Shown: piece after piece, positions 5,098 through 5,187 of the stretch
Layout: the number at the start of each line of letters is the position of its first letter
Position numbering within the stretch: position 1 is the first letter of the stretch
Source: a virus
Lineage: Duplodnaviria; Heunggongvirae; Uroviricota; Caudoviricetes
Length of the DNA: 6,282 bases
Virus record (IMG/VR): IMGVR_UViG_2778261182_000001
Direction: 5' to 3' (one strand)
Translations under genes and position numbers: made by a program
The notes under the pieces: model-generated
Told to the model about the DNA's origin: nothing
Database searches by the model: none
The model's input: the letters and a program-made list of their open reading frames with translations, nothing else

Positions 5098-5187
5098 TCA
5101 ATCAGAGAGGTGATTCATAAGAACGATAACAAGACAATAAATTGCCATTACTGCCGCAATAGCCAGCGCACATTTCAGAACCAGCAC
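5098..5187 (-). CDS. Candidate small hydrophobic membrane peptide, 29 aa (MLVLKCALAIAAVMAIYCLVIVLMNHLSD)
   Basis: GTG at 5187 preceded by GGGAGG with a 5-nt spacer. About 21 consecutive hydrophobic residues with a short polar C-terminus. Candidate promoter TTGAAG - 17 nt - CATATT about 30 nt upstream. Too short for the supplied ORF track. Confidence 0.4.
   Translation of the reverse strand: MLVLKCALAIAAVMAIYCLVIVLMNHLSD

Follow-up and report, generated by a model that had tools for sequence, protein, structure and literature searches.

The type I toxins TisB (29 amino acids), ShoB (26), IbsC (19), ZorO (29) and DinQ (27) of Escherichia coli each consist of a single hydrophobic helix with a short polar end, and they are missing from routine annotation. 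Here we examine an open reading frame (ORF) of similar size in a 6,282-nucleotide stretch of viral DNA (IMG/VR record IMGVR_UViG_2778261182_000001, Caudoviricetes), referred to throughout as the window. Read on its minus strand, the window corresponds to a nin region from a lambda-like prophage, and the ORF is located there directly 5' of a hok/sok toxin-antitoxin locus. We consider it probable that this ORF is a real protein-coding gene for a 29-residue protein, predicted to span the inner membrane once, and that it represents a narrow family of 29-34 amino acids carried by lambda-like prophages of Escherichia and Shigella. The family itself is real, narrow and uncharacterised, and it belongs to the small prophage-encoded membrane proteins. 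An earlier reading of the same DNA (the original prediction) had proposed an unrecognised gene for a small membrane protein, which is borne out by a conserved intact frame and a product predicted to be a hydrophobic single-helix peptide. It had also suggested that the peptide might be a type I toxin or might be paired with hok, and these suggestions are weighed below.

Conservation of the small ORF

The ORF has a GTG start codon at 5187-5185 and a TGA stop codon at 5100-5098 on the minus strand and encodes MLVLKCALAIAAVMAIYCLVIVLMNHLSD. Its position and translation were given correctly in the original prediction. So were its near-consensus ribosome binding site (RBS), GGGAGG at 5198-5193, five nucleotides (TCATC) ahead of the GTG, and its location immediately upstream of the hok promoter, where 7 nucleotides separate the stop codon from the -35 hexamer. 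The hok gene lies 213 nucleotides downstream on the same strand. We refer to this form of the gene as type A.

A first sample of 96 copies was gathered by peptide pattern from viral contigs, species-representative genomes, E. coli genomes, phages and plasmids. These copies comprise 31 distinct DNA sequences, and all 96 are intact, with 29 codons, no insertions or deletions, and no internal stop. They start with GTG, or with ATG on the Shigella virulence plasmid pINV, and end with TGA or TAA. A second sample was anchored on the hok promoter and leader to avoid selecting intact peptides, and it provides 118 usable loci. Full-length DNA homologues are present in 36 of these, every one of them intact. 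Another 15 loci retain just the last 23-37 nucleotides after recombination, 14 of them as one haplotype fused to the end of another gene, and the remaining 67 have no blastn similarity to type A. Homologues with a disrupted frame had been put forward in the original prediction as a possible refutation. Those that exist are recombination truncations that delete most of the gene, and no full-length copy carries a frameshift or nonsense mutation.

The GGAG core of the Shine-Dalgarno sequence is kept in nearly all copies, and its flanks vary (GGGAGG, AGGAGG, AGGAGA or GGGGG, with TGGAGG or TGAGG in two copies). Frame, length, start codon and Shine-Dalgarno core are therefore conserved across the aligned copies. 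Two other frames were considered and rejected. An enclosing ORF of 51 amino acids with a TTG start has upstream residues that diverge, and some copies hold an in-frame stop just before the RBS; because this upstream part of the frame is not conserved, the GTG is taken to be the true start. An overlapping forward frame from an ATG at 5201 lacks this ATG in other copies and has the lowest synonymous fraction.

The pattern of substitutions changes at the boundary of the ORF. Nucleotide diversity is 0.23-0.30 in the 60 nucleotides just upstream and 0.067 within the ORF, a roughly fourfold step located precisely at the start codon. Of the substitutions observed within type A, 46% are synonymous, compared to 27% expected in this frame (p = 0.008), and no other reading frame equals this excess. 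Ratios of nonsynonymous to synonymous substitution rates (dN/dS, NG86 method) are 0.16-0.26 between the window copy and the pINV copy, 0.18-0.42 between type A and the diverged type B described below, with dS above 1, and 0.13-0.25 within type B. Synonymous codon differences between types A and B are numerous and include the codons of a Tyr-Cys-Leu motif as well as Leu, Arg and Val codons. As judged from these alignments, the amino-acid sequence of the small protein is under purifying selection. Conservation of the ORF and its RBS with a bias toward synonymous change, which the original prediction had named as a check, is what the frame, length, GGAG core and synonymous excess display.

Diverged homologues and evidence of translation

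In 25 of the 67 hok loci without blastn similarity to type A, the same slot is occupied by a 34-codon ORF, type B, which is preceded by AAGGAGG, starts with ATG, and encodes MSDDISLAMEGALAVIAVVGVYCLVVFLMDRLGN. A type A profile recovers type B at E = 2.8e-10 among 34,726 six-frame ORF segments, and the next unrelated match has an E value of at least 0.039. Depending on which variants are paired, identity between types A and B is 41-55%; among type A variants it is 72-100%. The core common to both types is ALA-[IV]-x-AV-x-x-[IV]-YCL-x-V-x-LM-[DE]-R-L. Its Tyr-Cys-Leu is invariant in the curated A/B alignment, save for a few rare database variants, and so are the Leu-Met preceding the tail and a number of helix positions with small residues. 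One divergent variant of 30 codons (L222), rich in synonymous differences, is found in a lambdoid prophage, where a Hok/Gef gene closely follows it.

These homologues also have their position in common. In the window and at the other loci, no other small ORF intervenes between the gene and the hok promoter; the setting is a lambdoid nin region, and the gene is on the hok strand. The order of a DUF551 gene followed by small ORFs is common to the window and the type B loci. A peptide in the same slot, the low dN/dS values and the synonymous differences together form a pattern for which selection on the peptide is the sole explanation that we find.

Translation has been recorded for type B. In E. 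coli O157:H7 Sakai, this gene is ECs_5710 (RefSeq, 34 amino acids) in prophage Sp6, 188 nucleotides upstream of the annotated mok/hok gene. A ribosome profiling study listed the locus among its novel genes as XECs145, with the start call placed further upstream (Hücker 2017, PMC5597208). In lysogeny broth (LB) at 37 °C, XECs145 had 79.1 reads per kilobase per million (RPKM) in RNA-seq and 346.1 RPKM in RIBOseq, with a ribosome coverage value (RCV) of 4.35 and a coverage of 0.99 (PMC5597208, S2 Table). The corresponding values were 121.3, 150.1, 1.14 and 0.84 in the brain heart infusion (BHI) control and 73.3, 1.1, 0.01 and 0.37 under BHI stress (PMC5597208). The same study classed the gene as 'real' and predicted an inner membrane location and one transmembrane helix for its product, for which no function was proposed (PMC5597208). 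XECs145 is among the better-translated novel ORFs of growing Sakai cultures, and these data show that the type B homologue is occupied by ribosomes in uninduced O157:H7 Sakai cultures.

Searches with peptide strings and the WP accession find nothing in the main texts of the literature, and the Sakai locus is present in the supplements of the Hücker study. The hokW-sokW paper, the icsP/ospZ literature, a Pas-sRNA preprint and the Pro-SMP finder paper are silent on the small ORF. As the original prediction anticipated, automated annotation usually skips the gene: nearly all RefSeq hits have no feature under the match. Members of the family are sporadically annotated as 'hypothetical' (for example, WP_000960667.1) or 'membrane protein'.

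Members of the family are 29-34 amino acids long and have one predicted transmembrane helix and a short polar C-terminus. The best 19-residue window of type A (residues 6-24) has a Kyte-Doolittle mean of 2.84, and the mean over 19 residues is 2.43-2.97 across all variants. An AlphaFold2 model of type B built from the family alignment is one helix spanning residues 2-33, with a predicted local distance difference test score (pLDDT) of 90.8. Hydropathy and model together favour the single transmembrane helix with a short polar tail that the original prediction described.

That description also held that the peptide resembles no known toxin or small protein, and profile searches agree. Type A has no match at E <= 10 in Pfam, PHROG or PADLOC, and its sole NCBIfam match is a spurious one to ATP synthase c (13.9 bits against a cut-off of 116). 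Profiles of catalogued small toxins (Hok/Gef, PF01848; the Ldr, Ibs, TisB and ShoB families) do not match it. Type B peptides, and those of the type C ORF introduced next, have no meaningful family match in Pfam, NCBIfam, PHROGs or PADLOC. Hok was considered as a diverged paralogue of the small peptide and rejected, as there is no alignable similarity beyond generic hydrophobicity.

Two other elements occur at these loci. Type C is a second small hydrophobic ORF. In the window it is a remnant whose ATG overlaps the stop codon of the DUF551 gene (ATGA), and it is broken at codon 3 by a TGG to TGA change (5426-5424). Intact type C ORFs of 26-27 amino acids (MTWPEAFTTVGIAMAVALVVYSICRWG) immediately precede the hok promoter in 23 of the 118 hok loci and precede type B in others. 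The other element is a perfect 22-bp palindrome, CGATATGGGAATTCCCATATCG (L148:1788-1809), which follows the type B stop codon and precedes the hok promoter. Some hok loci that lack the small gene contain it as well, and it could be a protein-binding site or a hairpin.

Locus architecture, expression signals and distribution

The features surrounding the small gene are collected in Table 1. In addition to these, the window carries a DUF968 gene, rusA and a Q antiterminator gene, and annotations of matching E. coli genomes have the identical gene order.

Table 1. Positions of the small gene, its putative signals and its neighbours in the window (strand -, minus).
Feature	Position	Strand	Details
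Small-protein coding sequence (type A)	5098..5187	-	GTG start, 29 codons, TGA stop; MLVLKCALAIAAVMAIYCLVIVLMNHLSD
Shine-Dalgarno GGGAGG	5193..5198	-	5 nucleotides before GTG
Predicted sigma-70 promoter of small gene	5225..5253	-	-35 TTGAAG (5253-5248), 17-nucleotide spacer, -10 CATATT (5230-5225)
hok promoter TTGGCG-17-TAGAAT	5062..5090	-	hexamers invariant in copy alignment
hok mRNA leader with Sok target region	4880..5055	-	Rfam RF01794, 120.5 bits, E 6.5e-28
mok start	4942	-	
hok (HokD/HokW-like) toxin coding sequence, 51 amino acids	4730..4885	-	hokD annotation in matching genomes
Type C small hydrophobic ORF remnant	5349..5432	-	sequence and intact homologues elsewhere
DUF551-type nin-region gene, preceding small ORFs	5429..5998	-	DUF551 annotation

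A TTGA-type -35 element and a -10 CATATT with a 17-nucleotide spacer are kept in 26 of 33 distinct upstream sequences, and the sequence of the spacer varies freely. In type A, the -35 element is TTGAAG or TTGAAT, and 37 nucleotides extend from the -10 element to the start codon. Because the hexamers are kept across a freely varying spacer, this arrangement is likely to be a genuine promoter, from which transcription would start near 5218 and yield a leader of about 30 nucleotides. The type B and L222 genes sit 35-49 nucleotides after a preceding ORF and are presumably co-transcribed with it. No terminator separates the small gene from hok. For neither strand is the fold more stable than that of shuffled sequences (leader and ORF, z = -0.71; plus strand over the ORF, z about -0.7), and the RBS is unpaired in the centroid structure. 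At E <= 1, Rfam models match only the hok leader near the ORF, and no RNA family lies over or beside it. A terminator-like hairpin with a T-run is located on the plus strand at 5318-5346 (hairpin 5318-5338), in the spacer separating the type C remnant from the predicted small-gene promoter. It is oriented opposite to all neighbouring genes and is outside the block common to most type A copies.

Type A is found in 1903 of 5426 complete E. coli genomes (approximately 35%), with about 2150 genomic copies in all. Carriers include T7 Express, E. coli B derivatives, 55989 and the species type strain ATCC 11775, and the variant of E. coli B, BL21 and T7 Express is MLVLKCTLAIVAVMAIYCLVIVLMDHLSD. Four isolated temperate phages also carry type A, as do 141 plasmids, of which Shigella accounts for 124. 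Type B occurs in some 672 genomes, including enterohaemorrhagic E. coli (EHEC) O157. In a set with one genome per species, type A is restricted to Escherichia and Shigella, save for three contigs from metagenome assemblies that bear other labels. Searched with a profile, 1.84 billion protein representatives yield 29 matches; the best-scoring ones and all those examined are variants of types A and B, and a few of the weakest are repetitive or outside the examined set.

The small ORF is absent from the five hok loci of K-12 MG1655 that were checked (Qin, hokA, hokB, hokC and hokE). K-12 is the strain of small-protein catalogues and the gene is usually unannotated; its absence from these loci has probably left it understudied. 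In K-12 Qin, relB-relE are directly upstream of hokD, that is, in the slot of the small gene, as the original prediction had stated. The 29-amino-acid Qin protein YnfS of K-12 was examined as a counterpart and is unrelated.

On the virulence plasmid pINV of Shigella and enteroinvasive E. coli (EIEC), the gene is located between ospZ and icsP, has an ATG start preceded by AGGAGG, and encodes MLVLKGTLAIAAVMTIYCLIVVLMERFSD, which UniProt holds as the uncharacterised protein A0A0M1UIT1. The plasmid keeps the hok promoter and about 90 nucleotides of the hok leader but has no hok gene (L005:2501-2900 in S. flexneri; the same is true of 124 Shigella plasmids). An intact hok lies downstream of 81 of the 87 copies with enough flanking sequence. 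Conversely, hok/sok is often found without the small gene. In the hok-anchored sample, the upstream region holds type C alone in 23 loci, other sequences in 19 and the truncations noted above in 15.

Matches to structured RNAs lie elsewhere in the window as well. On the minus strand between 1880 and 2078, right after the Q-like gene and ahead of a 190-amino-acid ORF (1827-1255), strong Rfam hits match isrK (2065-1989, 79.5 bits), C4 antisense RNA (1963-1880, 71.4 bits) and the a1/b1 target (2078-2026). This stretch looks like a P1/P7-type C4/IsrK control module within a lambdoid prophage. A tRNA gene at 1-71 (minus strand, 63 bits) is cut by the edge of the window, which is consistent with the tRNA cluster downstream of Q in the closest genome, a Stx2g prophage. 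An isrK-like match at 4640-4721 (minus strand) scores 26 bits, below the gathering score of 50, and falls over the 3' end and terminator region of the hok mRNA. It probably reflects merely a common hairpin-plus-terminator shape.

Function of the small protein and comparison with known systems

A plausible course of events for a lysogen-expressed accessory ('moron') membrane protein can be outlined. The type A mRNA would start at its own weak sigma-70 promoter (TTGAAG-17-CATATT) with a short accessible leader, and because no terminator precedes hok, the transcript would probably run on into the hok region. The peptide would insert as one helix that presents conserved small residues (Ala, Gly, Cys or Thr), the Tyr-Cys-Leu motif and a short acidic or polar tail. 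It may act via helix-helix contact with a membrane partner rather than as a self-sufficient pore-forming toxin, and lysogens would tolerate it at its native expression level. Neighbourhood alone makes Hok the obvious candidate for this partner. If the small protein modulates Hok or another membrane target, a protein layer would be added to a textbook RNA-controlled toxin system. If it does not, the family would be one more lysogen-expressed membrane peptide of prophages. In either case, the gene adjoins a toxin that aids phage release, and hok/sok clones that include the upstream flank may unknowingly carry it.

Several observations weigh against this account. The predicted promoter matches the consensus at 8 of 12 positions, which is below the threshold of the promoter scanner, and it is missing from type B and the L222 variant. 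A differential RNA sequencing (dRNA-seq) table for Shigella M90T (pWR100) has no start site for the pINV copy: the 100 bp upstream of the sites it contains never include the predicted promoter or that of the hok remnant, and positions 9102x, 9103x and 9085x-9087x are absent; this is a weak negative that reflects the conditions of one study. The ribosome profiling evidence comes from a type B homologue and not from a type A copy. The distribution of charges gives conflicting topology predictions: the sole Lys of type A (K5) is on the N-terminal side of the helix, and type B has an acidic N-terminal tail with its sole Arg on the C-terminal side. The family is also dispensable, as recombinant loci have kept hok and lost all but the last 23-37 nucleotides of the small gene. 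Finally, types A and B are followed by an identical Hok protein although the small proteins themselves are only about half identical, so there is no co-variation in support of a specific interaction with Hok.

More specific or competing interpretations can be ranked by how well they withstand the evidence. One is that the small protein is a dedicated Hok partner. It might be a membrane modulator that buffers leaky Hok in lysogens, a proteinaceous 'immunity' atop the Sok RNA, or one that primes the membrane for faster Hok action after induction. The conserved adjacency, the shared strand, the lack of an intervening terminator and the translation of a homologue in the lysogenic state allow this idea, and many prophage hok/sok loci would then be three-component systems. 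An obligate partnership is disfavoured by the missing co-variation and by the many hok loci without the small gene, and we regard the idea as doubtful overall. In the recombinant haplotype (L102, L105, L108 and 11 others), the last 23 nucleotides of the small gene form an in-frame fusion with the end of an unrelated gene upstream, giving a product that ends in KKRRSDFMDHLSD, and hok is intact. The small gene is hence dispensable for the retention of hok. The pairing with hok suggested in the original prediction therefore holds as a conserved position and no further: hok/sok is common without the small gene, and the small gene is kept without hok on pINV. At the loci compared, the link between the two genes is positional.

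A second interpretation, raised in the original prediction, takes the product to be a type I toxin that damages membranes and is normally kept silent by a small RNA acting in antisense or in trans; together with hok/sok, the locus would then hold two such toxins in tandem. Like toxins of the TisB, ShoB, Ibs and ZorO class, the peptide has fewer than 35 amino acids, one hydrophobic helix and a short polar tail, within the form expected of type I toxin genes (a hydrophobic ORF below about 60 amino acids with one predicted transmembrane helix), and its prophage location beside a bona fide type I system is suggestive. A promoter-like TTAACT-18-TAAAAT on the plus strand (5069-5098) and the plus-strand hairpin at 5318-5338 could bracket an antisense transcript. 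However, the E. coli B, pINV and L033 haplotypes lack this promoter-like site, and the hairpin is outside the block that most copies share. Neither Rfam, nor the promoters of the different haplotypes, nor the fold of the plus strand points to a cognate antisense or complementary small RNA, although an unrecognised trans-acting RNA might exist. Signs of a translation block during growth are likewise lacking, since the leader is short, the RBS is not sequestered, neither strand over the ORF has a fold beyond that of shuffled controls, and Sakai cultures growing without induction in LB and BHI translate the homologue strongly, with the high RCV in LB given above. No toxin hidden Markov model (HMM) in Pfam, NCBIfam or PADLOC matches the peptide. 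What speaks for a toxin is its architecture alone, and we consider this interpretation unlikely.

A third interpretation assigns the function to the DNA or RNA instead of the peptide. The ORF would be a cis-acting element for hok, in which transcription and translation to within 7 nucleotides of the hok -35 hexamer occlude or feed the hok promoter and create a 5'-extended hok mRNA with altered folding. The abutting stop codon, the absent terminator, the conserved spacing from stop to -35 in type A copies and the intact hok downstream of most copies (81 of 87) fit this arrangement. A purely cis-acting ORF, though, would not keep its amino acids, and dN/dS values of 0.13-0.42 together with the synonymous differences in Tyr-Cys-Leu, Leu, Arg and Val codons between types A and B show a different pattern. 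The tight spacing is not a property of the whole family, as the type B stop codon lies about 60 nucleotides, including the palindrome, from the hok -10 region. On pINV the small gene persists where no hok gene is left to regulate, and hok/sok occurs without the small gene in K-12 and Sp5, just as the hok/sok system of plasmid R1 works without it. Taken together, these points make a cis-acting role distinctly improbable. It is scarcely credible that the ORF is fortuitous and that common descent or a DNA-level signal upstream of hok accounts for its conservation: most type A copies are indeed 84-100% identical in DNA, the family is confined to Escherichia and Shigella, and another forward frame is open across the ORF, but type B is too diverged for blastn and yet keeps peptide and position, evolution is about fourfold faster in the adjoining leader than in the ORF, a clear synonymous excess exists only in the proposed frame, and ribosome footprints cover the type B homologue.

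The preferred reading, a small accessory membrane protein of lysogens, can be compared with several described systems. The nearest is the type B gene of Sakai Sp6 (ECs_5710/XECs145), which is homologous to type A, encodes one predicted transmembrane helix, and fills the same slot between DUF551/type C genes and the hok promoter. Type B differs in its ATG start, in an acidic five-residue N-terminal extension, and in the roughly 60 nucleotides, with the 22-bp palindrome, that separate its stop codon from the -10 region of the hok promoter. It is also without the TTGAAG-17-CATATT promoter and is located 35 nucleotides after its upstream ORF. Whereas type B has ribosome profiling support, the type A gene of the window is known from sequence.

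Hok/Gef proteins (PF01848) resemble the predicted form of the small protein in being small inner-membrane peptides with one N-terminal transmembrane helix, and hok is encoded in the same cassette on the same strand. The small protein has no sequence similarity to them and no PF01848 match, is about 20 residues shorter than Hok, and is without the periplasmic C-terminal domain of Hok. Its gene also departs from hok in that no mok-type overlapping frame, fold-back leader or Sok-type antisense RNA is found. Timing of expression is another difference. The HokW protein of Sp5 appears only after prophage induction (PMC8621323), whereas the type B homologue is translated in uninduced cells.

The short type I toxins TisB, ShoB, IbsC, ZorO and DinQ are similar to the small protein in length, in their single hydrophobic helix (predicted in the present case), in their polar end and in usually escaping annotation. 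No HMM or sequence match and no cognate antisense RNA connects the small protein to these toxins, and its leader is short and unstructured where theirs are long and inhibitory. Small regulators such as MgrB, MgtS, AcrZ and SgrT offer another analogy. There is no homology to them, and the small protein is encoded by prophages rather than by the core genome. Nevertheless, they likewise have a single helix and fewer than 50 amino acids, and by analogy the small protein would bind a larger membrane protein. Regulators of this type are tolerated when expressed, and ribosome profiling in Sakai suggests that the same is true of the small-protein family.
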